19,974 nucleotides of DNA, taken from the IMG/VR virus record IMGVR_UViG_2778261458_000009, positions 1-19,974 of that record; one strand, given 5' to 3'. A program made the translations under genes and the position numbers. The notes under the pieces are model-generated. The model made no database searches and had not been told where the DNA came from. It saw only the letters and a program-made list of their open reading frames with translations. The DNA is from a virus (taxonomy: Duplodnaviria; Heunggongvirae; Uroviricota; Caudoviricetes). Each line of letters starts with the position of its first letter. Positions within the stretch are counted from its first letter, which is position 1. This document shows positions 1 to 15,951 of the stretch, piece by piece.

Positions 1-408
1 TTAAACCGGAAAATTTTCATAAATAGCGAAAACCCGCGCGCCTTCCGCCCCGTAACGTTCTGGATTGCCGGAAAGGACCCGCCAGCCATTCGGGTTTACT
101 TCACAATGGGATTTAATATCTGAACGACCAAAGTTGTGCGACCACGGTCGCACGCTCCTGAATGCATGCCCTGTTTCTTCCACCATCGCACAGGGCTGGC
201 GAGCATGAGAGACAAACCCGCGAACCATAACCGCGCTGATGACAGGACTGGCCAGGCTTGTATTGCTTCCAGCCTTCGCTTTTGTGGCTTTTGCAATAGC
301 CTGACGGATCTGTGGTGGTATTGCGGTAGCCGCGAACACGGCAGGTTTTTGGGGTTCGTGGGGGCATATGTACTCCAATGAAGAAGCCACCAACATAGCC
401 TCCTCCAT
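1..408 (-). CDS. Hypothetical protein (135 aa)
   Basis: ORF ends exactly at window position 1 (TAA). A possible alternative start at Met5 is preceded by GGAGGAGG. Overlapped by three shadow ORFs in a GC-rich stretch, so the frame choice is uncertain. No family recognised. Confidence 0.4.
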   Translation of the reverse strand: MEEAMLVASSLEYICPHEPQKPAVFAATAIPPQIRQAIAKATKAKAGSNTSLASPVISAVMVRGFVSHARQPCAMVEETGHAFRSVRPWSHNFGRSDIKSHCEVNPNGWRVLSGNPERYGAEGARVFAIYENFPV

Positions 409-486
409 TCATCGTGAAACTATTTTCATCTACCCAGTAATGAATTCTTTGAAGAGTTGTGATCAATACAACTCGCTAATGGAGAG

Positions 487-524
487 GCTTGTCTCACACG
501 TGAGACAAGCTTCCTGTTTGATTT
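487..524 (+). terminator. Hairpin (10-bp perfect stem GCTTGTCTCA / TGAGACAAGC, loop CACG) followed by T-rich tract TTCCTGTTTGATTT
   Basis: Inverted repeat read directly at 487-510; the T-rich run follows on the plus strand only. Could instead be a protein-binding palindrome. Confidence 0.3.
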
Positions 525-589
525 ACTGGACACTATAGAAGGACAGAATGCCTTCCTCACTCGAATAACATCAATTAAGGAGGTTCAAC

Positions 590-712
590 ATGTTTCATTC
601 CACAAGTCATCAGGCTGTAATTATGGCAGCATCAGTTTGTGCCACAGACCTTTTCCGCTTCACTTTGAGCTTGATTCATTTCTACCTGACCGGCTCGCCT
701 CTATCTTTCTAA
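590..712 (+). CDS. Small ORF (40 aa, hydrophobic: MFHSTSHQAVIMAASVCATDLFRFTLSLIHFYLTGSPLSF) with near-consensus RBS
   Basis: TAAGGAGGT at 575-583, 6 nt before the ATG at 590; stop TAA at 710-712. Below the ORF-track size cutoff. No homology recognised. Confidence 0.3.
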   Translation: MFHSTSHQAVIMAASVCATDLFRFTLSLIHFYLTGSPLSF

Positions 713-989
713 TCCCCGATTTATCCAAATTTCACTGCCATAATGCCGACATTCTCTGCCATTGTTGGCTCCATTTATCCGTTAAAAGGGATATTAGTTA
801 AGTTATCCCGTGTAGGGCATAAGCCATTGTCGAGACCATTCATTGAATGGCCTCTGCAATAACCGATGCCTTTCCATCAGTCCGCCACCACAAAGAATCT
901 TTTTTGCCATAAGGCAGGAGGTTCATCTTTCAGTGGCTGCCAGTGTTATTTCCCCACTTACTGGCTTGGGTTGCTTCGCGGTGCTGCCG

Positions 990-1532
990 TTAATTAGTGA
1001 GTCCAGGGATTACGGTTTGCCCGTGCTGTTCAAGGCGTTCAATTCTCGCCAGTAGCTGAGGCTTCTTAATTTTTCCCCAGCGATTAAGCAGGCGACCTGA
1101 CATGCTGGCAACATCCTTCTCTTTCATGTACTCCAGCATTACGGCATTTCTCTCTTCTTCAAATTGACGATGACCAACCTGAAGCATGGCGTACATCCAG
1201 TTAAATGCGTTGATGTAAGCAATTTTGATACGCATTGCTTCTTTTTTGGTGTAGGACATAACCAAAAGCATCAACCCATCCTTGCGGAGACGGTAGAATT
1301 TTTGCGGCTTACCATTCTGTAACTTATTGTTTTTATAGCAAAGCTCAAAGTTGAGCTTTGTATCAAACTCAGGAGGGTAAGCTTCTATGGTTCGTTCAAT
1401 GTCACGAACTACGTTCTTCGGCAGCTTTCCAAATGCTTTTGCCACCATAAAAGAATCTGTAACCGGATCGTTGTTTGCCACAAAAATCAGATCTCGGAAA
1501 TCGATGCCGTTAACGATAGTTGGATAATTCAT
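990..1532 (-). CDS. Rha-family phage regulatory protein (180 aa)
   Basis: Segment ...FGKLPKNVVRDIERT...YRLRKDGLMLLVMSYTKKEAMRIKIAYINAFNWM... matches the Rha (Phage_pRha) signature recalled from memory. RBS AGGTG upstream of the ATG. Confidence 0.7.
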   Translation of the reverse strand: MNYPTIVNGIDFRDLIFVANNDPVTDSFMVAKAFGKLPKNVVRDIERTIEAYPPEFDTKLNFELCYKNNKLQNGKPQKFYRLRKDGLMLLVMSYTKKEAMRIKIAYINAFNWMYAMLQVGHRQFEEERNAVMLEYMKEKDVASMSGRLLNRWGKIKKPQLLARIERLEQHGQTVIPGLTN

Positions 1533-1677
1533 CAGTGCTCACCTTTTAGTGATGAACCTTGTCACACAGGATTCCGGCCCACAGAAAGGCACCGATCACC
1601 AAACCGGCATCCTCAAGGGTCATCCTGAAAGGTTCTGTGTTCATAAGTCGCGCGTGTGAAGCGCGTTTACTGCGGAC

Positions 1678-1702
1678 ATAAAAAAGCCCCGCATCGCGAG
1701 GC
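1678..1702 (-). terminator. Rho-independent terminator downstream of Rz/Rz1
   Basis: On the minus-strand RNA: stem GCCUCGC, loop GAU, stem GCGGGGC (7 bp, one G-U pair), followed by UUUUUU. Lies 33 nt after the Rz stop. Confidence 0.55.
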
Positions 1703-1734
1703 TCATTAAATTGACTTTGTAATTTGCAAAAAAA

Positions 1735-2172
1735 TTATTTCAGGCATTGCGTCCTGATGTACTCCTGCAGGTAGTTAACCTGCGCGGTTATCCTGTCGAT
1801 TCCACTTCTGAGACGGTAATAATTGAGTTCAGCATCTGCTGTAAGTCTTGGGCTTTCTCCATCGCCCATGCTGCTGGCTCCGGTCGTTGACTTTGCACAG
1901 GTGGCGGAGACTTGCAGGCGCTTACGACCAGCAGAAACATCAGCACGGAGACTTTCGATAGTCGCGTTAGCATCAGCAAGCTCCTTTGTGTATCTGGCGT
2001 CGAGTTCTGCTACATCACGTTGACGCTTCTGCATGTCAGCGATGATGTACGTGGCTTTATCGCGCTGTTCTTTATAGGTAATGGCGTTACCACGGTAATG
2101 ATTAACAGCCCATGACAGACAGACGATGATGCAGATAACCAGAGCGGAGATAATCGCGGTGACTCTGCTCAT
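1735..2172 (-). CDS. Rz: Rz i-spanin (145 aa)
   Basis: N-terminus [27 protein letters not shown] matches lambda Rz as recalled. ATGA overlap with the endolysin stop. Rz1 embedded in the +1 frame. Confidence 0.9.
1788..1979 (-). CDS. Rz1: Rz1 o-spanin lipoprotein, embedded within Rz (63 aa; true start may be a downstream Met)
   Basis: Entirely embedded in Rz in another frame. Lipobox-like LLVVSAC followed by a proline-rich stretch [11 protein letters not shown], as in lambda Rz1. Confidence 0.75.
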
Positions 2173-2645
2173 ACCTCAATCTCTCTGACCGTTCCGCCTG
2201 CTTCTTTGAATTTTGCAATCAGGCTGTCAGCCTTATGCTCGAACTGGCCATAACCAGCACCCGGCAGTGAAGCCCAGATATTGCTGCAACGGTCGATAGC
2301 CTGACGAATATCGCCGCGGTCAATCATCGGCAAAGCGCCACGCTCTTTAATCTGCTGCAATGCCACAGCGTCCTGACTTTTGGGAGAGAAGTCTTTCAGG
2401 CCAAGCTGCTTACGGTAAGCATCCCACCAACGGGAAAGAAGCTGGTAACGTCCGGCTGCTGTTGATTTGAGTTTGGGGTTTAGCGTGACAAGTTTGCGAG
2501 GGTGATCGGAGTAATCAGTGAACAGTTCGCCACCAACAATAACGTCATAACCGTGGTTACGTGTCGGTTGTCGCCCGTTATCCGTTCCTTCTGACCATGC
2601 CACCATATCAAGGAAAGCTTTACGCTGGGAATTTAGAGCCTGCAT
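2169..2645 (-). CDS. R: Endolysin, lambda R-type lytic transglycosylase (158 aa)
   Basis: Near-identical over its length to lambda R as recalled (…[47 protein letters not shown]…). Position between holin and Rz. Confidence 0.95.
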
Positions 2646-2648
2646 AAA

Positions 2649-2984
2649 TTACTCCTTCGAGCTACCAAATTTATTACCGATTACTCGCATTGCAGCCCCA
2701 CGAATAGCATCGACACCGATCAGCCCAACGCCACCACCAATGGCAACAGAAAGCGATTTAGGCCATCCGACATACTCAAGCGCGGATGCAAAAGTCAGCG
2801 TCAGAGCACCACAGAGCAAAATCTCGAGCGTTTTTCGCTTCCAGCCACCACCACCACCAAAATAAGCAATACGCAAACCAGCCATAACGATCGACATAAT
2901 CACTGCGCCAAGAGGCGTATCTCCACGCCACCAGCTCTGGAAAATCTCCAGCCAATCCGGCCATGTGTTTGGATTATGGGGCAT
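2649..2984 (-). CDS. Holin (111 aa, multi-TMD, not lambda S-like)
   Basis: Immediately upstream of the endolysin. Several hydrophobic segments and a charged C-terminus. Position-based call. Confidence 0.7.
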   Translation of the reverse strand: MPHNPNTWPDWLEIFQSWWRGDTPLGAVIMSIVMAGLRIAYFGGGGGWKRKTLEILLCGALTLTFASALEYVGWPKSLSVAIGGGVGLIGVDAIRGAAMRVIGNKFGSSKE

Positions 2985-3064
2985 GAATATCGTCTCTCAC
3001 CTCGTAAGTTATGCAGGCGACATATAAAAAGTTAAATAAAATAGTTGAATCAGATTGAGACATG

Positions 3065-3095
3065 GAAAAGGCTCGCCTGTGCGAGCCTTTTATTT
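3065..3095. terminator. GC-rich hairpin terminator (stem GGCTCGC / GCGAGCC, loop CTGT) flanked by A-run and T-run
   Basis: Perfect 7-bp stem at 3070-3087, TTTTATTT on the plus side and AAAAG on the other. About 70-100 nt downstream of the 429-aa cargo gene stop. Confidence 0.45.
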
Positions 3096-3128
3096 AGGTA
3101 GAGTGTTATAATAAAATCAAATTTACAT

Positions 3129-3153
3129 TATCTTCTTCCAAAAAGAAGATAAT
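3129..3153 (-). terminator. AT-rich hairpin (10-bp stem TTATCTTCTT / AAGAAGATAA, loop CCAAA) directly after the cargo operon stop
   Basis: Perfect inverted repeat read directly. On the minus-strand RNA it is followed by U-rich sequence. Confidence 0.3.
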
Positions 3154-3164
3154 CATCATATCCT

Positions 3165-4454
3165 TCAGAGCTCCTGATAAGCAGGTTGCAATTTTTCACA
3201 CCACTGCCTTAAAGTAGAAGCCCTTCTCTTTATTGTTTTGGAGCTGAGAGATATACATCTATCTTGCAAAAATCGTTCAGCTGTAAGTGGATCGAGCTCA
3301 GAAAGATTTTTAGCTTGACTCCAGGTAATCCACGCCCACCCGCAATGACTTGTTTCAAAACCGCGTGCAGCGATTCTTAGTCTCTTATCATAGTCAGATT
3401 CAACCAATTGCTGACCAAGAGCTGAAACAGAACCATTACTATTTAGTAACCCAAGTATTTTGGCCGCATGAATATAATACAATATATGTCGATTATCCAG
3501 ACCAGTACTAATCAGGTTCAGATGCTTCTCTTGCCATTTTAATTCAACTATCTTAAACACTTGTTCAATTAGGTTAGCCTGCGGTACCTGATAACTACTA
3601 ACAACTTGAGTAGCCATTTTAATCAATGTGCCAGAATAGAACTCAGCATCAGTTTTTCTGACTCTAAGAATAATATCATCAGTCACATTACTTTTTAGTT
3701 CAAAACATGAACTTGTCTCTATCACACTTTCAAATAAAGCAGATAACATCTGAGCATCGATATTATTCTGCTTAACAAAACCAATAATATCTTTTCTTGA
3801 TAGAATCAGATCATTTAGTTTTTTCAGCAATGGTTCAATTTGCTGCATTTTATCTGCCTTGAATGAAAGAACAAATGAACCAGGACGTCCAGATACTGGA
3901 CTCATTACATCTTTTTCATCAAATGCAGCTAATATTGATGAATAGAAATCATTAAAACACTCAAAAAGCTTCGAGACGCCTTTTAAAACCAAGGGTTCCA
4001 CAGAAGTTGCTGTTTTCTCCACATGAATCTCATGCGTAGAGAATTCTACCTCCTTTCCAATTTTACCATTAGGTAATACAGGAAGAACACTACTAATATA
4101 TAAGTTAGGTTCTGGAATTTTTATCTTCTCATTTAACTCAGAAACATTTATTTTTATTTCATCAACATGATTATCTTCATAGTAAATATTAAACTGATAG
4201 CAAAGCTTTTGTTCTTGATAAACTAAAACACTTCTAATATCAATTCTTTTACGCTCGAAGTGCTCCAACCTATCTTTTGAAATCGGTATGATAATCCATT
4301 TATCATAATCTTCTTCGTCGCCAATCCAATAGACAACAAACATGCTATTTATTTCATTAGACACAGAGAAAAGTTTTGGCTCTTCGAAGAACTCATAAAT
4401 TTTTTGCATATATAATGTGCCGAACACACTATCTTCCAAAAAAATATTGCTCAT
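3165..4454 (-). CDS. Hypothetical protein, cargo gene B (429 aa), no recognised domain
   Basis: ATG at 4452-4454 preceded by AAGAGAGGTGG. ATGA overlap with the upstream gene stop. AT-rich (roughly 30-35% GC by eye). Confidence 0.8.
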   Translation of the reverse strand: MSNIFLEDSVFGTLYMQKIYEFFEEPKLFSVSNEINSMFVVYWIGDEEDYDKWIIIPISKDRLEHFERKRIDIRSVLVYQEQKLCYQFNIYYEDNHVDEIKINVSELNEKIKIPEPNLYISSVLPVLPNGKIGKEVEFSTHEIHVEKTATSVEPLVLKGVSKLFECFNDFYSSILAAFDEKDVMSPVSGRPGSFVLSFKADKMQQIEPLLKKLNDLILSRKDIIGFVKQNNIDAQMLSALFESVIETSSCFELKSNVTDDIILRVRKTDAEFYSGTLIKMATQVVSSYQVPQANLIEQVFKIVELKWQEKHLNLISTGLDNRHILYYIHAAKILGLLNSNGSVSALGQQLVESDYDKRLRIAARGFETSHCGWAWITWSQAKNLSELDPLTAERFLQDRCISLSSKTIKRRASTLRQWCEKLQPAYQEL

Positions 4455-4891
4455 CTAACCACCTCTCTTATACAGGTGAATTTTTCATGAACTCGAGCAT
4501 CTTTACAAAGCCAAATGGTAAAATGAGTCGAATCAGGAGCTCCTGTTTTTAGCATTCTTCCATCCTGTGGATTCAACTCGCCTTTAGCAATAAACCTTTC
4601 ACCTATTCCTTCAGGAAATTTATTAAATACATTTACCAGTGATGTTTCGTCCATGAACATAGAAACACCATAGCAGCATTTCAATTGTAACCCTTGGAAC
4701 TTTTTCATTCTTTTTGGGTTTTCTTCTTTCATGTTTAAAAAACAAGCTTTCCCAGGTGGATTATTTCTGGCTAAGCGATAAAAAACCCCTTCAGCATCCA
4801 AGGACTCTTTTGGAGGAACATCTGCAGGAAAATAATCGGGAAAAATCTGTTGGGCAGAGTCTTCAAGAACCTGCTGTGCATTTTTAGTCAT
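4451..4891 (-). CDS. Hypothetical protein, cargo gene A (146 aa from the ATG at 4889-4891; the ORF track extends to a TTG at 4918)
   Basis: Translationally coupled to gene B (ATGA overlap). AT-rich. Start codon uncertain because no strong RBS precedes either candidate. Confidence 0.65.
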   Translation of the reverse strand: MTKNAQQVLEDSAQQIFPDYFPADVPPKESLDAEGVFYRLARNNPPGKACFLNMKEENPKRMKKFQGLQLKCCYGVSMFMDETSLVNVFNKFPEGIGERFIAKGELNPQDGRMLKTGAPDSTHFTIWLCKDARVHEKFTCIREVVR

Positions 4892-4918
4892 ACAATACGC
4901 TACCCAAGTAATTAACAA

Positions 4919-5486
4919 AAATCTGCCAATTTATTGGATATACACGTCCCAAATCCCTTGGCATCGTATTGAATATAACAACAAGCACATTAATCACATA
5001 TGCAATAAAGGCATAAAAAACACAACATATATAGCAAAAAGAAATCAAAAACAATATACGGGATGATGCGGATTTTTTTTATCTATATATAGTGGCTGGG
5101 CATAAGAATTGTTATAAAGTTGGCGTCCCTTGCTCCCATGTAATCATATGAAACACAGGATATAATTCCTGAAGGTAATCACATACTTCCCTAGATACAT
5201 AGATGAGAGACTAAAATAAAACCTACCGCCAAGAACTATGCCTTTTTCAACCAATCGTACTCTCTGCCCTGTCTAAAAGGCGGCCATTCAAAGCAAGTAC
5301 TTTTTTATGTTTATCAAGAAGCTACTAAGACTATTCAGAACTGATATTTGGATAACAAAATACCAACTTGATGGCGGGTTCTTGAAGATTCTCAACGGCA
5401 GACATACAAAGCCCATCGTTGAGAAAATCTTATCCATATTTTTTGAAAAATGCAAGCTTCATGTCGCTATCTTCGGCGAAAATCAC
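4919..5486 (-). promoter_or_regulatory. AT-rich intergenic region; expected location of the Q-dependent late promoter/qut site and of a promoter for the cargo operon
   Basis: 568 bp with no convincing ORF between the Q stop (5487) and the cargo gene start. Promoter elements not confidently placed. Confidence 0.3.
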
Positions 5487-6239
5487 TTATCTCGTCACCT
5501 TTCTCAATTGTGTTTCAGCATATGCTTCTTCCTGCCAGCACTTTGTTACTAGTTTATCAATTACGTCTGCATATCCTTTGTACCACTGATAATCAGTCAG
5601 GTCTGGAACCAGCTTCTGGACATGACGTCGTGCCAGTGTAGTCGGTAAACGGCTAAACCGGTTTCCATTGCAACGCCCACAAGTCTTATAAACAGGCGTG
5701 CCATGAAGCCGGGTTCTTTTTTCATCCAGGACAATACCTTTCCCCTTACACCCTCTGCACGCCGTGCTGACTTCTCCCTTGCCATGACAATGCTGACACA
5801 GTTCCTTCACCCACTCTTCTTTGATAACGGATTCCCCGCTTCTGGAATATTTCACCACTTCGCGCAATACATTATGAAATCCAGTACCAGCACAATGCTC
5901 ACAGCGAGCCTTACTTGCCGCAGACCTGGAATAATCAGCAAAGGCAAAATTCACAAGGTAAGGGATGATCTGTAACCGGGTTTCTTCACTCAATTTGTTC
6001 AATGTCTGGTTATCCAGTGCCATCGCGTAATTGAGCAGGCCTTCAATCGCAAACTGAGGATCCTGAACTCCAACTTTTGCCAGGAATAAGGCAAACCCAA
6101 GCGGTGCTTTCGACTGCACCATCCCCTGCGCAGCCATTACATCCGTAATTGTTAAACCACCCGAGCCTGTCGCCGGTGCGTCATCGCTCAATTTTGGAGA
6201 TTTTGGGGAGTAATATTTCGGTAAGGCTTCAAGGTTCAT
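5487..6239 (-). CDS. Late-gene antitermination protein Q-like (250 aa) with four CxxCxGxG zinc-finger repeats
   Basis: Position immediately upstream of the lysis module. Repeats CEHCAGTG, CQHCHGKG, CRGCKGKG, CGRCNGNR. Size and architecture recalled as similar to Qin-prophage Q homologs. RBS GGAG 8 nt upstream. Confidence 0.6.
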   Translation of the reverse strand: MNLEALPKYYSPKSPKLSDDAPATGSGGLTITDVMAAQGMVQSKAPLGFALFLAKVGVQDPQFAIEGLLNYAMALDNQTLNKLSEETRLQIIPYLVNFAFADYSRSAASKARCEHCAGTGFHNVLREVVKYSRSGESVIKEEWVKELCQHCHGKGEVSTACRGCKGKGIVLDEKRTRLHGTPVYKTCGRCNGNRFSRLPTTLARRHVQKLVPDLTDYQWYKGYADVIDKLVTKCWQEEAYAETQLRKVTR

Positions 6240-6252
6240 GCTCGTTCTCCAC

Positions 6253-6513
6253 TTACGCCAGTACGCCTATTGCCAGCGCACGATCGATAAAACGAAATAT
6301 CAGCTCCAGCTGGGAGCCATACTTCTCTTCAAATGCCACGGTATCCGCATGCAGCTCGTCGTGATGCTTTCTGCACAAAGGCAACACAAAGAGATCATGC
6401 GCTTTTGTCCCCATTCCACCCTGACCATGGCCTATCAGGTGGTGGGGATCATCAGCAGGCTTTCCACAACATGCACACGGCTGTGTCTTAACCCAGCGCG
6501 TGGTACTTTTCAT
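6253..6513 (-). CDS. Cys/His-rich zinc-binding protein (86 aa), probably the C-terminal part of a split DUF968-like prophage gene
   Basis: CACCGK…HH…PLCRKHHDELH motif. Overlaps the upstream ORF by 26 nt in another frame. Weak RBS. Confidence 0.55.
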   Translation of the reverse strand: MKSTTRWVKTQPCACCGKPADDPHHLIGHGQGGMGTKAHDLFVLPLCRKHHDELHADTVAFEEKYGSQLELIFRFIDRALAIGVLA

Positions 6514-7249
6514 TAACCCAGCGGCGACGTTTTGGGCGTAACATAAAAGACTCCGGCGACTCCGGCTCCACTTTCAGCGCCAGCACCTTTTTCGCCTTAT
6601 CCTGGATGATGCTGGTGGCAGGAACCGAAGGCACAAGGTCACTTTCCCGGGTGACAGACGGCACAACAGGCTTCGGTAATCTCAGTGCCTTACGGGCTGC
6701 ACTTTCCGGTAAGGCATCCGCCAGATCATTACGAATCAGCCACCAGCACAGTTCCGGCATTGTCACAACGTGACTGTCATCAAAACCGAGATCCCGACGC
6801 ACGACAGATAACACCCACCGGGCACAGTTATCCGTTGCCATTGATTCCAGCCGTTCCGTGAACTGATCGCGCAGCTGGTTATCGCAGTGCCAGCACAGAC
6901 GGATTGCGCCCGGCGCGTGTCGCATTGTGGTCATGTTCTCGCTGTGCCAGTCGGAATGAGGCCACTGGCAGCCTTTTTCACGAAGTAACCAGCTTTCAAG
7001 ACATTCCACCCCACCAGCACGACGGATCACTGTCTCATTGCGGAACACGGCCCGAACGGCAGGATCATCCGCCAGCGGTTGTGATGCCGCCGGAACGGCA
7101 CCACTGGCAAAAGATGAATAACGTTCCGGCTCAGGCTCCAGCAGGACACGCCCCTGCATAAACAGGGGCATCAGCTCTGAACCTGGTCTGAACAATACGA
7201 TCCCCATACGTGGGGCAATTTCAGGGGTCAGTAGTGCTCTCACGGTCAC
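6488..7249 (-). CDS. Hypothetical protein (253 aa), probably the N-terminal part of the split DUF968-like gene
   Basis: Long ORF tightly following the KilA-N gene (1-nt gap). Ends within an 11-bp direct repeat. Confidence 0.55.
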   Translation of the reverse strand: MTVRALLTPEIAPRMGIVLFRPGSELMPLFMQGRVLLEPEPERYSSFASGAVPAASQPLADDPAVRAVFRNETVIRRAGGVECLESWLLREKGCQWPHSDWHSENMTTMRHAPGAIRLCWHCDNQLRDQFTERLESMATDNCARWVLSVVRRDLGFDDSHVVTMPELCWWLIRNDLADALPESAARKALRLPKPVVPSVTRESDLVPSVPATSIIQDKAKKVLALKVEPESPESFMLRPKRRRWVNEKYHALG

Positions 7250-7250
7250 C

Positions 7251-8060
7251 TCAATGAACGGTATCGAGCAGCTTTAACAGCTCAGGGAATCGGGATTCGA
7301 AGAAATGCGGCTGCGTCTCGCGCGGATTTGCGGGACTGGTGATGTTCTTGCCGAACATGCAGCCTTTCGCTGTCAGCGACCAGAATTTTTTGATGTTGTT
7401 AATCGCGGTACGGCTGTATCGTTCGCGCTGCTCGACGATCCCCAGCTTCACCATCTGGTGATATGCCTGATTAGCCGTCAGGCGGATACCATACTGTTTC
7501 AGCAGTGCACTCAGTGACAGTGTCGGGCGACTTGAGCCATCGTGTGCATCAGCAGGGGCATCAATGGCATAGCGCGGTGCCAGATTCGGTAAGCCAACAG
7601 CCTCCTGGAGTTTCTGACAGGCACCAAGCACTGAAGAGTTAGACAGGTTTAATTCCCGGCGCATAAAGTCCAGCAGAATCACGCCAGCCTGCATCTTGTC
7701 AGCAGCCTGCCCGGATAATTTTTCCAGTGCGCTGGTTACCATATCGAAAGTACGGATCACCTTTAGATGGAATGACGGGCTGATCCACATTGCATAGGCA
7801 TACACCAGTTCTTTGCAGACATACGTTCCCCGTTCATTTCCCCCATGAATCACACTCACCGGGTCAACACCCAAATTCTGGGTGTTGGTCAATTCATGAA
7901 CAAGCTCAACAGTTTGTTGGCTGGAAAGAAACTTTCCTGGCTCCTTGGTTCTGGCATTTGCACCAGATGCTACTGCTGCGCGATGCAGATCGTTCAGGCT
8001 GTAACGCCCATAAGCATCACGACGAACTTCAATACCATCAATGACCATCAGATTATTCAT
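7251..8060 (-). CDS. KilA-N domain protein / antirepressor-like (269 aa)
   Basis: N-terminal segment …GKFLSSQQTVELVHEL…YVCKELVYAYAMWISPSFHLKVIRTFD… resembles the KilA-N signature. RBS AGGAG upstream. Confidence 0.7.
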   Translation of the reverse strand: MNNLMVIDGIEVRRDAYGRYSLNDLHRAAVASGANARTKEPGKFLSSQQTVELVHELTNTQNLGVDPVSVIHGGNERGTYVCKELVYAYAMWISPSFHLKVIRTFDMVTSALEKLSGQAADKMQAGVILLDFMRRELNLSNSSVLGACQKLQEAVGLPNLAPRYAIDAPADAHDGSSRPTLSLSALLKQYGIRLTANQAYHQMVKLGIVEQRERYSRTAINNIKKFWSLTAKGCMFGKNITSPANPRETQPHFFESRFPELLKLLDTVH

Positions 8061-8079
8061 ACTTCGTTTCTCCTCTTAA

Positions 8080-8469
8080 TCAGGCGGCTGCACCCGCCGG
8101 TTTCTCATACTTACTGATAGTGATCTCGACCTTCCCTTCCGGGATAACCGGTCCCCACTCCACCAGCATTCTTTTCACCTGACTGTCGTCTTCCCACACA
8201 CCCGCGTGGGTCAGGGCGTCAAACAGTGCCTTGTTATAGTTGTCCAGATCGCGGATCCGGTTATCCGGAGGAAACAACACGATCTCCACTGAAGCAGGTG
8301 CCGACGTTGGTTTCGGCAGACGACGTAACTGCTCAACTATTGCTGCGCACGCCGCGCTCTGGAATTTGCGCCCCGCCGCGCTTATCAGGCTTTTACCAGC
8401 AAACGCCCCTTTGTTAGGGTGTCGCCAGTACGTATTCACGCTGGGCGGGAAAGGAAGGATCAACTTCAT
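8080..8469 (-). CDS. rusA: Holliday-junction resolvase RusA (129 aa)
   Basis: …LPFPPSVNTYWRH…RIRDLDNYNKALFDALTHAGVWEDDSQV… matches the RusA family pattern as recalled. Confidence 0.85.
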   Translation of the reverse strand: MKLILPFPPSVNTYWRHPNKGAFAGKSLISAAGRKFQSAACAAIVEQLRRLPKPTSAPASVEIVLFPPDNRIRDLDNYNKALFDALTHAGVWEDDSQVKRMLVEWGPVIPEGKVEITISKYEKPAGAAA

Positions 8470-8792
8470 ACTTTCAGGCCCCTCTCATGTAACCAGTAGG
8501 CTGCACGCAGCCTGGCGTTTTCCTCACCGGCAAGCAGTGAGCGGATAATCCCGACCGCCTCGCTGTCGTCGTCCTTCACCGCGGTATGAAGCGTTATCCC
8601 CCGGGCCACGCCACGCTTTATCGTGATGACGCCTTTTTTCTCCAGTGCGCGAAGATGCTCCACCGCTGCATTCACCGAACGGTATCCCAGCATGGTTGCC
8701 ACCTCCTGATTGGTTGGCGGAAAGCCACGCTCTTTCTGATAAGAAATCAGCATATCCAGCACCTGCTGCTGGCATTGAGTTAACGTCGTCAT
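8466..8792 (-). CDS. LexA N-terminal DNA-binding-domain protein (108 aa, no peptidase domain)
   Basis: …LTQCQQQVLDMLISYQKERGFPPTNQEVATMLGYRSVNAAVEHLRALEKKGVITIKRGVARGITL… parallels the LexA N-terminus as recalled. ATGA overlaps with the Dam and RusA genes. Confidence 0.8.
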   Translation of the reverse strand: MTTLTQCQQQVLDMLISYQKERGFPPTNQEVATMLGYRSVNAAVEHLRALEKKGVITIKRGVARGITLHTAVKDDDSEAVGIIRSLLAGEENARLRAAYWLHERGLKV

Positions 8793-9442
8793 GCCGCCAT
8801 CTCCCTGACCAGTTTTTCCGCCTGCTGGCGAACCTGCGCCAGAAAGGCCTCACCACATGCCTCAAGTTCATCGCGCCCGATGTAGCTGATTGCCGGTCCC
8901 TTCCAGGTCTTGTCGAAAACAGCAATAGCACCAGCGAAGAAAGCGCCTGTCGGCACCTGCTTCTCGTCCTTCGGGATAAACCAGGCAGGCAGTTCAAAAC
9001 CAATACGCCCGCGAATAAAAGCAATATGGTCCGCATCTTCCGGCCACCACACTTCGCTGGTGGCAGCTTTGATCAGGAAAACATAGCGCCCGCCCTTATC
9101 ACGCATGGCACTGGCATGTTTCATGATGTAACGCATGCCGGTGATGTATTGCCCCTCATGCTGACTGGCGCGGCTGTATGGGGGATTACCAAAGGCAGCA
9201 CCTTTAAGCTCCGCAAGACGTTCTGACCAGTCATGCGCCAGCGCGTTGTCTTCCGCCGTGTAATACGCGGCACATTTGGCGTTATCACCGTCAGTGAACA
9301 GATCCAGAACAAACGGACCAAACAAGGTGTTAATTCCCCAGAAAATGTTGTCCGGCGTGCGCCACTGATCGCCCACTTCCTTCAGTTCATGGGCTGGTTT
9401 GTTCCGCAGTTCTACCAGCGCCTGGCAATATTTATTACTCAT
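8789..9442 (-). CDS. Phage DNA N6-adenine methyltransferase (Dam family, 217 aa)
   Basis: NPPY motif (AFGNPPYS). Position within the early-right operon. Confidence 0.8.
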   Translation of the reverse strand: MSNKYCQALVELRNKPAHELKEVGDQWRTPDNIFWGINTLFGPFVLDLFTDGDNAKCAAYYTAEDNALAHDWSERLAELKGAAFGNPPYSRASQHEGQYITGMRYIMKHASAMRDKGGRYVFLIKAATSEVWWPEDADHIAFIRGRIGFELPAWFIPKDEKQVPTGAFFAGAIAVFDKTWKGPAISYIGRDELEACGEAFLAQVRQQAEKLVREMAA

Positions 9443-9534
9443 TAAGCCCCCACGTAAAAAGCATCCGCAATGTCTCCGGAAGTACAGCCCGGATGGGCTT
9501 CAATGAATTTCTGAACTTCATTCAAAAGACTCAT
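9442..9534 (-). CDS. Small ORF (30 aa: MSLLNEVQKFIEAHPGCTSGDIADAFYVGA) translationally coupled between the O-like and Dam genes
   Basis: ATG 2 nt after the O-like stop (TGATCATGA). Its TAA overlaps the Dam ATG (TAATG). Hand-translated; below the ORF-track cutoff. Confidence 0.35.
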   Translation of the reverse strand: MSLLNEVQKFIEAHPGCTSGDIADAFYVGA

Positions 9535-9536
9535 GA

Positions 9537-10355
9537 TCACCCCCTGAATCCTGCCGGGATCTGGCTGTAGTCCACGTTGTCGTAACTGGCTTTGAAGTAC
9601 GGGTCCTCGCGTCTGGCTGCAGATACCGCAGGAACTTCCCAGGATTCTTCGAAATGACGATCCGGACCAAAGAACGTGACAGCCTGTTTCACAAATTGTG
9701 TACCGCTATTGCCCATCGCAGATACCCAGCCCGCGTAGCGTTTCACACCTTCCAGCATGGTTTCGGGGTTTACCCCCTCGTTCAAACGGGCTTTCCAGGC
9801 TTTGAAGGCTGCTGATTTTGAATTGCCACCAGCACGTTTGGGATATGCCAGCCATGCCTGCTCAAACTCCGGAGAGTATTCCGGTCGGTTTGAACGAACT
9901 CGCACAGACTCATCAGCAGATGCACCAACAGCTATTGGTTCATTGACTGATTCTTTGACTGGTTCAAAAGAGTGACTGGTTCTGGGTGAATCTCCTGCAC
10001 TACCCCCTGGTGCAACTCCTGCACTACCTGGTGAATTTGCTGCACCAGATAGTGAATTATTTGCACTACCCCCTAGTGAATCTCCTGCACCATCCAGATG
10101 AAGGAGATAGATATTACTTGAGTTACCTTTTTCACCTTTCCGGGTGACTTTTTTTACCAGCCCGGACTCACAAAGGGCCGCAATATGATTCATCACAGAA
10201 CGTTTGCTAATCTCGCACTGGTCAGCAATATGCTGGTAGCTGGGCCAGCACTCACCCTGATCGCTGGCATTATCAGCCAGCTTGATCAGAACCAGTTTTC
10301 GCAATGGATTACCCACTCGAATTTTCATCGCTTTAACCATCAGCTCCATACTCAT
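9537..10355 (-). CDS. Replication initiator, O-like (272 aa): N-terminal wHTH, Gly/Ala/Ser linker, conserved phage C-terminal domain
   Basis: N-terminal HTH-like segment, low-complexity linker encoded by tandem DNA repeats, position after cII/Rha as in lambdoid replication modules. Confidence 0.7.
   Translation of the reverse strand: MSMELMVKAMKIRVGNPLRKLVLIKLADNASDQGECWPSYQHIADQCEISKRSVMNHIAALCESGLVKKVTRKGEKGNSSNIYLLHLDGAGDSLGGSANNSLSGAANSPGSAGVAPGGSAGDSPRTSHSFEPVKESVNEPIAVGASADESVRVRSNRPEYSPEFEQAWLAYPKRAGGNSKSAAFKAWKARLNEGVNPETMLEGVKRYAGWVSAMGNSGTQFVKQAVTFFGPDRHFEESWEVPAVSAARREDPYFKASYDNVDYSQIPAGFRG
9985..10095. repeat. Five tandem ~21-24 bp imperfect direct repeats (approx. GTGAATCTCCTGCACTACCCCCT) inside the O-like gene, followed by an AT-rich stretch; candidate origin iterons
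   Basis: Repeats read directly at 9985-10008, 10009-10029, 10030-10051, 10052-10074 and 10075-10095. Lambda ori iterons likewise lie within gene O. Confidence 0.5.
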
Positions 10356-10576
10356 GCTGCACCTCCGAGATGCTTCATGTTTTTTCCGGAGCGAAAGGCT
10401 ATAAGCGGCATACTGACGCGGTAATTACGGCCCAGCGGTTCACAAATCACCTTCTGACATTCACGGTCAACCAGGCTAACACGTAGAACATGCCCTGCAG
10501 GTGTGGTGTACCACTGACCCGGACGAGGACAACGGAAAGTCTGATTGGTAAACCGTTTGAAAATATTCCGGATCAT
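10352..10576 (-). CDS. Hypothetical protein (74 aa)
   Basis: ATGA overlaps on both sides (with the Rha-domain gene stop and the O-like gene start). Confidence 0.5.
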   Translation of the reverse strand: MIRNIFKRFTNQTFRCPRPGQWYTTPAGHVLRVSLVDRECQKVICEPLGRNYRVSMPLIAFRSGKNMKHLGGAA

Positions 10577-11721
10577 TTGCGCCCCCTTACCTCTGAAGGG
10601 TTCAGCGACAAATTTATGAGGCAGGCCAGCGCCGAAGCATCATTAATATAGTCATACAAGCTAACAGCCAGCGGAGATTCGTCTTTTGCCAACATAGGAT
10701 AAAGCTGCTGCAGCCAGACCTGATGAATTGATGAAATGTAGGAATAGAGAACGCTGGCGTTATGTGCAACGTCGCTCGGTACAGGGGGTTTTGAAAGCTG
10801 TTTCTCCATCTGGTTAAAGGCATTGATATATGCCTCTTTGAACTGGGCAGCACGTTTACCCGTGAAACCCATAGCAAGAAACGCAAAGCCGTCGCGGGTT
10901 ATTTGATAGCAAGGTAGTTTGCGGCCTGATGCGTCGATGTACTCACTGAGCTGAAAATTCAGCTCAGTAAATTCGGCAGAGCATTCAAGAGACGCAATTT
11001 TTTGAATGACATTTTTGTGTTGTTTGCCGAAATAACTAGCAACAGCCAGAGAAGAAGTAACAACTTTGTCTGCAATAATGCAAAGTTCAGGTTGTACTAA
11101 GGCAGGGATCGTAGCCATGATGGCAGCCTCCGTATGCAATGGATAACTTCCACCACCGGAAACGCCAATTTCGCTGGTGGTGAACTGAGCAGGGTTGGCG
11201 TAACCGGCGCATACGGAAACCGGCGCACCTTTCGGTGCCCCCACCCAGCCCACCATAATTTGGGTATAGCTGAGTTGTAGCAACAAAAAAGACGCTAACG
11301 CGCCAATTGTCGCCGTATGCAATTCCAGGACGCCAATCCCGGCACCCGCTTTATAAGGTGCCTGAACAGTGTAACGTCCCGGAATGGCAGAATCAATGTG
11401 CTGGTGGTCCTTCACACTCAACAAAATCACGCCTGAATTTCCACAAAGGACTAAAGCACTCATGCGGGTAGTCTTTGCGAAGATAGATAACGCGCTGTGT
11501 TTCTGGTTCCCAACGAATAACATGAACATAAAGCCCTCTTCCGTCACGAAACCAGCGGTTAAGTTCCTGCACAACTCGCCCCCCACAGTCAGGTAAAGTT
11601 CTCTGTGGTTACTTACAGCCAGGTGATTTGGTAATCTGCATTCATGCCGTAACAACAGGTGTTCAGAGACGCTGACCACCAGCTGTTGCGACAAACGGTT
11701 ATTTGCCGTTAAACTGTTCAT
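10573..11721 (-). CDS. Rha-domain protein: 382-aa ORF with the Rha domain in the C-terminal 182 aa; a strong internal start at 11116-11118 could give a 182-aa Rha protein
   Basis: …FGKQHKNVIQKI…YQITRDGFAFLAMGFTGKRAAQFKEAYINAFNQM… matches the Rha signature. The 5' ATG at 11719-11721 overlaps the cII-like stop (ATGA). The internal ATG is preceded by GGAGG. Confidence 0.65.
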   Translation of the reverse strand: MNSLTANNRLSQQLVVSVSEHLLLRHECRLPNHLAVSNHRELYLTVGGELCRNLTAGFVTEEGFMFMLFVGNQKHSALSIFAKTTRMSALVLCGNSGVILLSVKDHQHIDSAIPGRYTVQAPYKAGAGIGVLELHTATIGALASFLLLQLSYTQIMVGWVGAPKGAPVSVCAGYANPAQFTTSEIGVSGGGSYPLHTEAAIMATIPALVQPELCIIADKVVTSSLAVASYFGKQHKNVIQKIASLECSAEFTELNFQLSEYIDASGRKLPCYQITRDGFAFLAMGFTGKRAAQFKEAYINAFNQMEKQLSKPPVPSDVAHNASVLYSYISSIHQVWLQQLYPMLAKDESPLAVSLYDYINDASALACLINLSLNPSEVRGRK

Positions 11722-12326
11722 GCGTTAGTTTCTCCACAGACACAAAACGCCACGACGCCCGGAGCTGCACACTCGCGGGCGTCACTCTTTTCTGGAGCGC
11801 AAAAGATTTTGTAGACCAGTGCTGCATGCTCCTGGAGCTTCGAAATTGACAGATACAACTCATCATTAATTGCTGTCTGCTCGTGTGGTTCCACCACCCC
11901 GTCTTCAATTGCTGAACGAATCTGTTTTGAATAACTGCCGATCTGTTCAATGACCTCCAGCAGGCGTTGGTTTATATCGGCGTTCTCTACTTCCTCAATT
12001 TCAGGAAGCGATACAAACACCCCACCAGCAGACTGTGCGACTGCATCCGCAATGTGGTGAGTGCCAGCAGCACGCTGTAAAACCATTGCCCATCCCAGCG
12101 GGAAAATCTGATCGCCATCGGCACGAAGGCGGTTAAATAATGCGTTCTCTGTTACATCCAGCCAGTCAGCAGCTTCAGCGTAACCCCCCGGCAATGCCGC
12201 GATAGTTTTTCTGACAGCTTTCACGTACCACTCAGGCTGTTTTTCTACTTTCCAGTGATGCTTACCCACGGTTAGCCTCATCGTTCTGTGGTTTCTGTTA
12301 ATCGATTTATCCATTAGATTTTTCAT
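11718..12326 (-). CDS. cII-like phage regulatory protein (CP76-type; about 202 aa from Met20; start uncertain)
   Basis: Position directly after cro. Family assignment is from memory and tentative. The ORF-track start at 12383 would overlap cro by 77 nt, so a downstream Met (12326, 12314 or 12281) is more likely. Confidence 0.5.
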   Translation of the reverse strand: MKNLMDKSINRNHRTMRLTVGKHHWKVEKQPEWYVKAVRKTIAALPGGYAEAADWLDVTENALFNRLRADGDQIFPLGWAMVLQRAAGTHHIADAVAQSAGGVFVSLPEIEEVENADINQRLLEVIEQIGSYSKQIRSAIEDGVVEPHEQTAINDELYLSISKLQEHAALVYKIFCAPEKSDARECAAPGVVAFCVCGETNA

Positions 12327-12507
12327 AAAGCTCAGGTTTAAATGGCAACCGTCCGCAAGTTCTATATGCAGCTTCTGCTGCACGTCCTTTTGGAATTAAC
12401 TGGCCCGGACGGTTTCGCCACTGATAAACGGCTTCAGTTGTTATGCCGAAAAAAGCAGCAACTTTCTCAATACTGCCGAAGTAGCTTTCGATATCGTCAG
12501 TTGTCAT
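12307..12507 (-). CDS. Cro-like HTH regulator (66 aa)
   Basis: Divergent from cI. RBS GGAGGG 5-6 nt before the ATG. HTH-like …VAAFFGITTEAVYQWRNR…. Confidence 0.75.
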   Translation of the reverse strand: MTTDDIESYFGSIEKVAAFFGITTEAVYQWRNRPGQLIPKGRAAEAAYRTCGRLPFKPELYEKSNG

Positions 12508-12604
12508 ACGCCCTCCAAACTAAGTTTTATTAGATGCTAATTACAAATCTATCTTTGGTCAATAAAAACTAAGATTACTTAGCAATTCAAGAAATGGTGC
12601 TCCT
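12508..12604. promoter_or_regulatory. OR-like operator/promoter region between cro and cI
   Basis: Perfect 14-bp palindrome CTAAGATTACTTAG (12569-12582) and related CTAAGTTTTATTAG (12520-12533). Minus-strand -35 TTGACC (12557-12562) and -10 TAGCAT (12534-12539), spacer 17, with the second operator over the -10/start. Confidence 0.6.
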
Positions 12605-13231
12605 ATGGAAACGGTTGGTCAGCGTATAAAAGCTCTGAGAAGAGTTACCAGAACGTCCCAGAAAGAATTGGGTAAATTTTGTGGAGTAAGCGACGTTGCT
12701 GTGGGGTACTGGGAGAAAGACATCAATACCCCTGGTGGGGAGGCACTTTCGAAATTAGCGAAGTTCTTCAATACGTCAATAGATTACATTCTTTATGGTG
12801 CTGAGTTTGAAGGCAAACTCGTCACAAACATGCGCAGAGTTCCTGTAATATCGTGGGTTCAGGCTGGGCAGTTTACTGAGTGCAGGGCAGCAGAAGTGTT
12901 TAGTGAAGTGGACAAGTGGGTAGATACATCATTAAAGATTGGTGATAACTCATTTGCATTAGAGGTTAAAGGTGACTCCATGACTAACCCTAATGGCCTC
13001 CCAACAATACCAGAAGGCGCAACAGTGATTGTAGATCCAGATGCAGAACCTCGTCATGGAAAAATAGTCATCGCTCGACTTGATGGAACAAACGAAGCTA
13101 CAGTAAAAAAATTAGTCATCGATGGCCCTCAAAAGTTTTTAGTGCCATTAAATCCTCGGTATCCCAACATCCCTATCAATGGTAATTGCCTTATCATTGG
13201 TGTAGTCAAAGGAGTTCAATACGAACTCTAA
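12605..13231 (+). CDS. CI-like repressor, HTH plus S24 LexA-like peptidase domain (208 aa)
   Basis: N-terminal HTH (…QKELGKFCGVSDVAVGYWEKD…), Ala-Gly cleavage-type site (VQAGQF), catalytic Ser in GDSM and Lys in KKLV. Confidence 0.9.
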   Translation: METVGQRIKALRRVTRTSQKELGKFCGVSDVAVGYWEKDINTPGGEALSKLAKFFNTSIDYILYGAEFEGKLVTNMRRVPVISWVQAGQFTECRAAEVFSEVDKWVDTSLKIGDNSFALEVKGDSMTNPNGLPTIPEGATVIVDPDAEPRHGKIVIARLDGTNEATVKKLVIDGPQKFLVPLNPRYPNIPINGNCLIIGVVKGVQYEL

Positions 13232-13284
13232 GACCTCTCTTCTCTAACTAAGGCACCGAACTAAGAAAAGTTTGGTGTTTTCTC

Positions 13285-13313
13285 TTGCCATAATAACTAA
13301 GTTAAGTTAGATT
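13285..13313 (+). promoter_or_regulatory. Putative pL-like promoter with OL-type operator
   Basis: -35 TTGCCA (13285-13290), 17-nt spacer, -10 TAGATT (13308-13313). Operator-like CTAAGTTAAGTTAG (13297-13310) lies in the spacer; further CTAAG copies at 13248-13252 and 13261-13265. Confidence 0.4.
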
Positions 13314-13421
13314 TTATATCAAAGATAACGAACAGGCAGGACGCCCACGAAGTAGCCGCCGGTGGCGTATGAATGACCGGATGATTCGTTAGCAACAAAA
13401 AAAGCGCCCTATAGGACGCTT

Positions 13422-13434
13422 CGCTCTTTAACAA
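13422..13434 (+). promoter_or_regulatory. boxA-like element CGCTCTTTAACAA (candidate nut-site boxA)
   Basis: GCTCTTTAACAA matches the rrn/nut boxA core as I recall it, about 100 nt downstream of the putative pL. No convincing boxB hairpin or N-like protein found. Confidence 0.4.
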
Positions 13435-13465
13435 TCCTGGTATCCCCGTAACAAAAGAGGGTTCT

Positions 13466-13759
13466 ATGGTCATATTCTGTGCTTACGTTCATCCTAATGG
13501 ATTTTTTATCAGCACCAACCAACAAGACGAATTCTGGATTCTACTTAGTAAGCAGGTCGGATGGGGACGATTCTGTCTAATCCGACCAGAATCAGAATTT
13601 ACAGAGAATGGAGGGCTTTTTGAATTACGTGAAATACGTCCGGCAGATGGTCAAGCCCCTGACCAAGTAATCGAATCGTCAGCTGTTTTATGGCGTCGGC
13701 AGGAAGCGTTCGAAGCTGAGAGAGTAATTTCTTCTTATCTTCAGTCGTGGCAGAAGTAG
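13466..13759 (+). CDS. Hypothetical protein (97 aa)
   Basis: RBS AGAGGG 5 nt before the ATG. Its 3' 161 nt overlap the convergent 167-aa ORF, so one of the two may be spurious. Confidence 0.4.
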   Translation: MVIFCAYVHPNGFFISTNQQDEFWILLSKQVGWGRFCLIRPESEFTENGGLFELREIRPADGQAPDQVIESSAVLWRRQEAFEAERVISSYLQSWQK

Positions 13760-14102
13760 AACTATTGATGATACGTTCAAGTTCACAGAGAGTCTCATCA
13801 TGCAATCTTATTGTCATAATCCCAAGAATAGCTTTAAGACCTCCATCATCACGAATGAAATCAATTCCATCTTTAGTAATTCTTAATTCAGGAATATTTA
13901 TATTTATGCCATCCAAGTAATAATCAAGAGCATTCTTAATCAAGCCATGTTCTTCGAGATAAATTAAGTTCGAAATTAGGACATTATCATCTCCAAATGC
14001 GTCACGAACAGACTGCAACGCATCATCAGAAATTTCATAAGGATGAGCATCATACAGTATTTGTAACAACTGCCTTTGTGCACTTCTATCAAATTTGTCC
14101 AT
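13599..14102 (-). CDS. Hypothetical protein (167 aa), AT-rich accessory gene convergent with cI
   Basis: ATG at 14100-14102 with GGTGA about 9 nt upstream. 5' two-thirds markedly AT-rich by eye. No family recognised. Confidence 0.55.
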   Translation of the reverse strand: MDKFDRSAQRQLLQILYDAHPYEISDDALQSVRDAFGDDNVLISNLIYLEEHGLIKNALDYYLDGININIPELRITKDGIDFIRDDGGLKAILGIMTIRLHDETLCELERIINSSTSATTEDKKKLLSQLRTLPADAIKQLTIRLLGQGLDHLPDVFHVIQKALHSL

Positions 14103-14571
14103 CTTAAATAATCACCATGTTATTGGGGTTATCAAGATTAACCGAATCCTTGTTGTTGGGGAATAACCAGGTCCACCTCGCCTGATGTGGCTAAAAGCAG
14201 GCACATAACAGCTAAGTATTTTCAACCAGAGAGAATCCTTAGCGTTGTGGTGAATGCGGCTCAGCGCACGCGGGTTAAGGTTGAGGCTGACAGTCGACCT
14301 TCTGTGGATACCCACCCGTCTGGTGTGCAACCTTCGCCAGGCACCGGGAGGCACCCGGCACCACAACTTTATGCTGTGTGTAGTCCTGGCGGTACCAGTT
14401 TGTACCCTTGCTTCCGGCTGGTACCGTCCTTTTTACAAAACAGAGAAGAGCATCACCGGACGACGGGCTCATAACCCAATCCATCCTGGCGGCTGCCACC
14501 GCAGGTGTTCTTCTCTGTTTTGTGGAGAAACTAATCGGCCTTGCAGGGTCGATATGATGAGGAGCAGCAAA

Positions 14572-14934: not shown

Positions 14935-14999
14935 TATCGTTTTTAATTAACTGATTATTTATCTCATCACTGAATATCTTTATATAGTGAGGACTTATT

Positions 15000-15824: not shown

Positions 15825-15951
15825 TTTCATTACTGCAAATGCCCCTGCGGGGGCATTTATGGAAACGTAATTAACTCAATAATCACCGGATGGTGAGGGC
15901 TTCCTTTTACCAGAATTCAGCGCGGTGCAGTGCATATACGTGGAGAACAAA

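Follow-up and report, generated by a model that had tools for sequence, protein, structure and literature searches.

PD-T4-10 of Escherichia coli ECOR65 is an anti-phage system recovered by functional selection. It consists of two overlapping open reading frames (ORFs) and protects against T-even phages with an abortive-infection phenotype (Vassallo et al. 2022, Nat Microbiol; PMC9519451). In this system the B protein is toxic and is neutralised by A; gene A could not be deleted, while deletion of B abolishes resistance to T4. A function was predicted for neither protein, HHpred found nothing (PMC9519451), and a 2024 survey still gave the system as a pair of genes of unknown function. Here we describe a two-gene cassette, composed of gene A followed by gene B, in a lambdoid E. 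coli prophage sequence (Caudoviricetes) of 19,974 nt (IMG/VR record IMGVR_UViG_2778261458_000009, positions 1 to 19,974), the whole of which is termed the window below. By profile comparison this cassette is a distant relative of PD-T4-10 and belongs to a sister family rather than to PD-T4-10 proper.

Relationship to PD-T4-10 and proposed mode of action

The relationship was established by matching both proteins against the PADLOC models PD-T4-10_A and PD-T4-10_B (PDLC04023/PDLC04024). Protein A gives a remote match to the former (E = 3e-10), with aa 24-144 aligned to positions 24-147 of a 148-position profile (124 positions). The same model was matched by 23 of 24 diverse A proteins, which matched no other, with a best E of 6e-12. 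Protein B matches the latter (E = 1.7e-7) over aa 23-120 only, corresponding to positions 26-120 of 353; the match is thus not full-length, and other members of the family align to position 165 at most. The gene arrangement is also that of PD-T4-10, namely adjacent overlapping ORFs with A preceding B, an order that is constant in related loci. As the two proteins match both components of one system in the correct order, the resemblance is not due to chance. The PD-T4-10_A model is about equally remote from all of the sampled A proteins, and the alignment of B is confined to its N-terminus, which together argue for a sister family. Homologues of B fall into 63 clusters (28-99% identity) and those of A into 26. 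Protein B additionally contains the Pfam domain DUF6575 (aa 3-223, E = 9e-37, 127 bits against a cut-off of 26.6) and is named in RefSeq as a DUF6575 domain-containing protein. Hence, the statement of the first-pass annotation that neither protein could be placed in any family does not hold. Otherwise, A had no match in Pfam, NCBIfam or PHROGs, B had none in NCBIfam or PHROGs, profile searches of PDB sequences with A and B returned nothing meaningful, and a homologue search with a profile of the N-terminal domain of B (N-domain) retrieved only short DUF6575 fragments.

The reading that we favour, and to which we attach somewhat better than even confidence, is that the cassette encodes a defence module, expressed in the lysogen, that belongs to the PD-T4-10 superfamily and operates by a toxin–antitoxin-like logic. 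It draws on the homology to PD-T4-10 and the experiments on that system, the conserved gene order, the genomic contexts of the relatives, the predicted structure of the C-terminal domain of B, and the organisation of the cassette as an insulated unit. We infer that the lysogen makes A and B from the promoter of the cassette, and that A, with its predicted ADP-ribosyltransferase (ART)-like fold, would restrain B by binding the DUF6575 N-domain of the latter. B would be the effector, the conserved double helix-turn-helix (HTH) domain of which, of the BrxA/FokI type, would bind DNA. Infection by a foreign phage might then serve as the trigger by which the restraint imposed by A is lost or overridden, allowing B, presumably toxic here as in PD-T4-10, to act on DNA. 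Such action would halt phage replication at a cost to the cell, giving rise to the proposed anti-phage phenotype.

Protein A and its genetic association with the DUF6575 N-domain

The AlphaFold model of A is a confident one, with a predicted local distance difference test score (pLDDT) of 87.6. The top ranks in a Foldseek search with it are occupied by cholera toxin A1, LT, Xre-RES, TreTu and pertussis S1, none of these hits being significant (E at least 0.24). Thus, A probably adopts an ART-like fold, although the similarity of the model to known ARTs is remote. Across 40 clusters, with identities down to about 24%, the invariant positions of A are P22, P26, P27, R39, F51, S77, H123 and W127. 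Two of these lie in the motifs [FY]-R39 on strand 1 and G-x-S77 on strand 2, and, judged from the order of the secondary-structure elements rather than from superposition, R39 and S77 may correspond to the NAD-binding Arg and Ser of the R-S-E ARTs. The usual catalytic Glu of ARTs is missing: A has no conserved Glu, E82 is variable, and strand 5 instead bears an invariant H123-x-T-x-W127.

The gene for A is directly upstream of one encoding an N-domain protein in about 130 loci overall, irrespective of what the N-domain is fused to. In all 77 loci fetched via A or B, A lies immediately 5′ of B or of another N-domain protein, overlapping it or at most 7 nt away. A metagenome scan found A upstream in 49 of the 51 loci having upstream sequence, and the same order is seen on two plasmids. 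The spacing of A and B in related loci is either an overlap or a gap of at most 12 nt. The pairing is kept where the N-domain is fused to a superfamily 2 (SF2) helicase (807-897 aa, Acidobacteria), where it is fused to a PDC-M63B-like region (loci L115, L128 and L133 of our set), and in a 404-aa N-domain protein with an unrelated C-terminus on an Oscillatoria plasmid. Survival of the pairing through these C-terminal swaps indicates that the genetic link of A is to the N-domain rather than to the remainder of B. On the plasmid in question (Oscillatoria nigro-viridis pOSC7112.01; L086:1-7188), the A homologue (137 aa) and the 404-aa protein come directly after a full-length Druantia DruE helicase. 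Standalone N-domain proteins of 127-156 aa (L080:1135-5066, L084:691-1545, L138 and L139) have no A detected upstream, and thus the N-domain can exist without A. In the first of these loci the N-domain gene follows genes for a protein resembling a type I specificity subunit (recognised by eye), an HD-domain protein and a 193-aa protein.

In an alternative arrangement the roles are reversed: the enzymatic effector would be A, which as an ART would consume NAD+ or carry out ADP-ribosylation, and B would be a DNA sensor that holds A off through its N-domain until foreign DNA, bound at the BrxA-like domain, frees or activates A. Only A of the two proteins has invariant residues of catalytic appearance, and the ART-fold proteins of known systems are toxins. 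Yet in PD-T4-10 it is B, expressed alone, that is toxic and A that rescues; the toxicity of PD-T4-10B may, however, reside in a part that it does not have in common with B of the cassette. Moreover, the replacement of the catalytic Glu region by H-x-T-x-W and the remoteness of the fold similarity both speak against an active ART toxin. We consider this reversal of roles unlikely, even if it is the foremost alternative to a defence module in which B is the effector.

Domain architecture of protein B

The AlphaFold2 model of B (pLDDT 91) suggests three parts: a beta-rich N-domain, a middle alpha/beta region and a C-terminal domain (C-domain). The last is predicted to comprise tandem HTH or winged HTH (wHTH) units, the arrangement that characterises the BrxA fold, and resembles BrxA, FokI and SspB in structure over about 130 residues. 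It also gives a borderline match to Pfam DUF7226 (aa 319-420), the score of 26.6 bits falling just short of the cut-off of 27. BrxA binds double-stranded DNA (PMC9240713), and the C-domain of B can likewise be predicted from its modelled structure to be a DNA-binding domain of the BrxA/FokI type. At the sequence level B does not join the BrxA/DUF1819 family, since neither DUF1819 nor DUF4007 was matched; nor were the BREX genes PglX, PglZ, BrxB, BrxC or BrxL found in the window or in the related loci.

Conservation among 164 members of the B family is centred on the C-domain, which is the best-kept part of the protein and displays the conserved residues Q292, R322, Y326, Y327, W375, W378, T407, R410, R411 and W418. 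Within the middle region, conservation across these members is confined to G192 and S193, to which P186 is added in the 28 proteins that have just this module in common with B. The B profile matches 2351 representative clusters (50% identity) at E <= 0.001, and many proteins of 500-560 aa contain only the equivalent of aa 140-427 or 283-427 of B behind other N-termini.

DNA methyltransferases in related operons

A DNA methyltransferase is encoded in the A-B operon in 14 of 41 clusters defined at 80% identity. In 10 of these it is a short N6_N4 enzyme of 225-275 aa. Nine of the ten (Vibrio, Photobacterium, Rheinheimera, Bacteriovoracaceae and metagenomes) have its gene overlapping A or ending 16-54 nt before it, and in the tenth (L101) the gene is placed convergently right after B. 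Two further clusters, from Psychromonas, have a Dam enzyme (PF05869) upstream of A. The remaining two have a complete MmeI-type IIG enzyme, the gene of which shares 4 nt with A in 17 of 20 loci and is followed by those for the N-domain–helicase fusion and a T5orf172 protein. The involvement of three unrelated methylase families, together with one rearranged gene order, argues for a functional link in those lineages.

Two of these configurations recur as recognisable units. In marine Gammaproteobacteria and their relatives, a three-gene unit combines an orphan-type N6_N4 methyltransferase of 225-275 aa with an A protein of about 126 aa and a B protein of about 420 aa, as at L007:4856-7269, L021, L022, L023, L024, L106, L108, L109 and L112, and with the convergent variant at L101. 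Its surroundings vary by locus; in V. fluvialis it is found beside filamentous-phage genes (Zot, secretin). In Acidobacteria, a conserved four-gene operon (L025, L026, L028 and 17 further metagenomic loci; e.g., L025:1831-8613) encodes the MmeI-type IIG enzyme, an A homologue, a protein of about 810-900 aa in which the DUF6575 N-domain is joined to an SF2 DEAD/ResIII helicase, and a T5orf172/MUG113 protein of about 440 aa. The latter operon looks like an undescribed restriction-modification-linked defence system.

The cassette of the window has no DNA methyltransferase in its operon, and the enteric prophage clade as a whole has none inside the cassette. We considered the 349-aa methylase that lies beside A-B in Klebsiella prophages as a dedicated partner and rejected it, for it is the common methylase of the cargo slot described below, being 79% identical to a slot methylase found without A-B. 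Elsewhere in the window (8789-9442, minus strand) the prophage encodes a Dam-family N6-adenine methyltransferase with 26% identity (E = 4e-6) to the Dam of the Psychromonas A-B operon. Dam genes are common in lambdoid phages, and this one need not be linked to the cassette.

Such associations raise the prospect that B reads DNA methylation in the manner of a restriction-modification or BREX system, with self-DNA protected by a methyltransferase, which in the present case would be host Dam or the Dam-like enzyme of the prophage rather than a product of the cassette. The recurrence of operonic methyltransferases from unrelated families would be explained by such a system, as would the placing of the C-domain of B in a structural class that BREX, Ssp and type IIS enzymes also employ; the distant similarity of the prophage enzyme to the Psychromonas Dam points in the same direction. 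However, the enteric clade that includes the window does without a methyltransferase inside the cassette, and where a methylase does neighbour A-B (clusters L002 and L056), it is the common one of the Q–S slot, present in thousands of genomes lacking A-B. Furthermore, phage Dam genes are ordinary in lambdoid phages and no recognised nuclease is present. We hold modification reading to be improbable for this cassette, though it is not exclusive of the other schemes, being compatible both with B as effector and with the reversed roles.

A more speculative generalisation, to which we would assign only a small chance, is that A and the DUF6575 N-domain constitute a portable control module. In it the ART-like enzyme would use NAD+ to restrain a DNA-targeting effector, for example by ADP-ribosylating the N-domain, while the swappable C-terminal modules and partner methyltransferases would couple the reading of DNA modification to abortive infection. 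If so, this would amount to a type VII-like toxin–antitoxin system with an ART as the antitoxin. The operons coupling a methyltransferase to A and B, and a type IIG enzyme to A, the helicase fusion and T5orf172, would then represent a previously unrecognised restriction-modification-linked class of immunity, of which the enteric prophage cassette would be a methylase-less derivative.

Organisation of the cassette and its cargo slot

The cassette lies between the genes for the Q antiterminator and the lambda-family holin S, the latter being followed by genes for lysozyme and then Rz. Its features are collected in Table 1.

Table 1. Coordinates in the window of the cassette, its predicted elements and its flanking genes
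Feature	Coordinates	Strand	Basis
Lambda-family holin S, downstream flank	2649..2984	minus	PF05106, E = 2e-27
Low-GC cargo segment (moron) in the Q-to-holin slot	3005..5371	none	blastn break points and GC
Intrinsic-terminator-like hairpin after B (11-bp stem, A-tract before, T-tract after; inside cargo)	3066..3091	minus	
Gene B	3165..4454	minus	ORF, 429 aa
B C-domain, aa 286-429, BrxA/type-IIS-recognition-like tandem (w)HTH (predicted)	3168..3599	minus	predicted structure, borderline DUF7226
B middle alpha/beta region, aa 136-285	3600..4049	minus	AlphaFold2 secondary structure
B N-domain, aa 1-135, beta-rich, first half of DUF6575	4050..4454	minus	PD-T4-10_B match, Pfam, model
Gene A	4451..4891	minus	ORF from ATG, 146 aa
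Shine-Dalgarno sequence of B, AAGAGAGGTGG, within the 3′ end of A	4459..4469	minus	read from sequence
Inverted repeat TGCCAA-N28-TTGGCA with T-run, starting 8 nt past the last -10 base	4924..4963	minus	
Candidate promoter, extended -10, TGTTATATT, 89 nt upstream of the A ATG	4972..4980	minus	alignment
Q antiterminator, upstream flank	5487..6239	minus	PF03589, E = 4e-54

The ORFs of A and B are real genes. An alternative TTG start would extend A to 4451..4918 on the minus strand (155 aa); the ATG start is backed by alignments of homologues and by the RefSeq annotation of the 146-aa product (WP_033555993.1), carried by a record of an E. coli prophage that is 99.7% identical. The stop of A and the start of B overlap in an ATGA at 4454-4451, and the Shine-Dalgarno sequence AAGAGAGGTGG ends 4 nt 5′ of the B ATG. 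The two minus-strand genes, their overlap and the ribosome-binding site thus read as the first-pass annotation had described them, and its by-eye impression of a low GC content was borne out by computation: A has a GC of 0.379 (0.286 at third codon positions) and B of 0.344 (0.277), against 0.47-0.56 in the Q, holin, lysozyme, DUF968 and RusA genes. For the entire cargo the value is 0.348, compared with 0.475 for the remaining window, and 72% of the codons of A and B end in A or T, compared with 47% in the neighbouring phage genes. Between the A ATG and the Q stop codon lie 595 bp without a convincing ORF, or the 568 bp originally noted if one counts from the TTG.

A blastn comparison with the related prophages L009 and L010 delimits the insert sharply. 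Homology stops at 3004, some 20 nt short of the holin ATG, and restarts at 5355-5372, about 115-130 nt past the Q stop codon, leaving about 2.35 kb in between. Of 5426 complete E. coli genomes, 3975 have matches to the flanks of the slot, but only three contain the whole cargo at >=99% identity. Most often the slot is taken up by a 350-aa N6_N4 DNA methylase accompanied by one or two small hypothetical ORFs, as in the same slot of L009 (1362-3417) and L010 (1362-2768). Pairs of A and B with 99-100% identity occur on eight IMG/VR prophage contigs, and no relatives of B were found in isolated phage genomes (50,697 GenBank records). The cargo therefore combines the hallmarks of a moron, namely foreign composition, a predicted promoter and terminator of its own, and a slot of variable content flanked by conserved phage genes, and is a self-contained mobile cassette in the order predicted promoter, gene A, gene B, predicted terminator. 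The survey of related prophages accordingly upheld the earlier placement in a moron slot. The broader suggestion of an acquired defence or toxin cargo proved right in kind, though not in the details of family assignment or nuclease motif that came with it.

The candidate promoter emerged solely from alignment, as a generic sigma-70 two-hexamer scan found no promoter upstream of A. The motif TG[TC]TATATT is invariant at -84 to -95 of the A ATG in 12 of 13 enteric clusters, which lie in different phage contexts and have coding DNA only about 70% identical. The inverted repeat downstream of it is present in 10 of the 13 clusters with an invariant stem and a spacer of 26-35 nt; it occupies the same position in L002, L011, L013, L016, L037, L046, L048, L056 and L068. 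Its role may be that of an operator recognised by the HTH domain of B, of a stabilising hairpin in the 5′ untranslated region or of an attenuator; the stem is invariant and shows no covariation that would favour a hairpin over an operator. The hairpin after B, anticipated by the earlier annotation, has a folding energy of -17.6 kcal/mol (z = -6.2), which none of 200 shuffled sequences equalled. Rfam searches found nothing in the cassette. As predicted from the sequence, this hairpin would shield the lysis genes from transcription of the cassette. The predicted promoter and terminator thus delineate an insulated transcription unit, an arrangement that would fit expression in the lysogen without switching on the lysis genes.

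In Enterobacterales, the A-B pair occupies several kinds of position. It follows Q antiterminators belonging to three different Pfam families or the genes for Rz/spanin or endolysin, is flanked by integrases on a plasmid, or separates the P2 gpA gene from the portal gene. The last is a defence hotspot described by Vassallo et al. (PMC9519451). Relatives are also encoded in operons with type IIG restriction-modification enzymes.

A further alternative is that the cassette is cargo serving the phage itself, for example as a counter-defence or take-over function that would be expressed late from pR′ with the help of Q, or as a lysogenic-conversion or virulence factor. The presence of a conserved predicted promoter and terminator of its own does not sit well with late expression from pR′. 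The pair is also found outside phages, on plasmids between integrases, beside Druantia and with restriction-modification enzymes, and it is homologous to a system experimentally selected for defence. Inspection of the translations, moreover, revealed no signal peptide or secretion feature in A or B. We accordingly regard phage-serving cargo as quite improbable next to a lysogen-expressed defence module.

Candidate nuclease motifs in protein B

Least probable of all is that B is a PD-(D/E)xK nuclease with the core D72-E81-K83, as tentatively hinted by the first-pass annotation from a D-x9-E-x-K arrangement: although conservation of D72 and E81 reaches about 90% in the close (enteric) homologues, the three residues are not kept across the 164 family members and we reject this core, the idea being close to refuted. 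A second candidate, E252-x-K254 with D233 in the middle region, is found in close homologues and was likewise discarded as it is not conserved family-wide, and T140-H-E...K147 is conserved only locally. The failure of all three motifs to persist across the family argues against a metal-dependent nuclease.

Other features of the prophage

In the early/immunity region, Rfam models matched at gathering level identify a C4 antisense RNA (11173-11260, minus strand; 80.7 bits) adjoining an isrK Hfq-binding small RNA (11285-11361, minus strand; 61.2 bits). Beside Q, the DUF968 gene (6253-7249, minus strand) falls into the ORFs 6488-7249 and 6253-6513. The split results from a 1-nt indel by comparison with a 98% identical prophage in E. 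coli strain 998, where the 330-aa gene is intact, and reflects either a pseudogene or a sequencing error. Just downstream of the lysis cassette is a gene for a Rha/ORF11CD3 regulatory protein (990-1532, minus strand) with a lowered GC of 0.425; prophage L001, otherwise 98% identical, differs in this region, which may be another cargo position.

Implications for the PD-T4-10 family

PD-T4-10 is a validated anti-phage system for which neither domain nor mechanism has been proposed so far, and the cassette shows it to be one branch of a far larger family. The comparison provides several new handles: a probable ART-like fold in A with four invariant candidate active-site residues (R39, S77, H123 and W127), a predicted BrxA/FokI-type DNA-binding effector domain in B, and the conserved pairing of A with an N-domain mounted on varied DNA-targeting modules, repeatedly in operons with unrelated methyltransferases. 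The predicted folds and the gene neighbours thereby offer the first testable ideas on how the PD-T4-10 family works. The cassette probably escapes standard defence annotation, given that B covers only 27% of the PD-T4-10_B model, and it furnishes a further example of the cargo slots in lambdoid late regions as reservoirs of defence systems.

Comparison with known systems

As to its position, the cassette is akin to the Q–S morons of lambdoid phages, such as stxAB of the Stx phages and the 350-aa DNA methylase cargo, with which it has in common the slot, the foreign composition and a location downstream of pR′. It differs from them in gene content and in having its own conserved extended -10 and terminator. 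The modelled C-domain of B belongs to the structural class of BrxA from BREX, of SspB and of the recognition domains of type IIS enzymes (FokI, BpuJI and N.BspD6I); unlike in BrxA, it sits behind a DUF6575 N-domain and a middle region, and its gene is paired with A. Like the cassette with its predicted ART-like protein, the RES–Xre, ParST, MbcTA, DarTG and CmdTAC/PD-T4-9 systems feature a small ART-fold protein encoded in two- or three-gene operons on mobile elements, and some ART-fold systems defend against T-even phages. In those systems, however, the ART is the toxin and displays an R-S-E, H-Y-E or RES catalytic set, while A, by homology to PD-T4-10A, is presumed to be the neutralising partner, apparently keeps the R and S and has H-x-T-x-W in the place of the catalytic Glu. 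Nor does the cassette contain a partner of the macro, Xre or SecB type. It would be unusual for an ART-fold protein to serve as the protective partner instead of the toxin.

PD-T4-10 itself remains the closest of the described systems. B of the cassette departs from it in length (429 aa against 353 profile positions) and in the lack of any alignment past about position 165. In both, a small A precedes and overlaps a larger B on an E. coli mobile element, A is homologous over nearly its full length, and the two B proteins have the N-terminal DUF6575 domain in common. By virtue of this homology, the logic of A neutralising B, with infection being aborted, likely applies to the prophage cassette as well.

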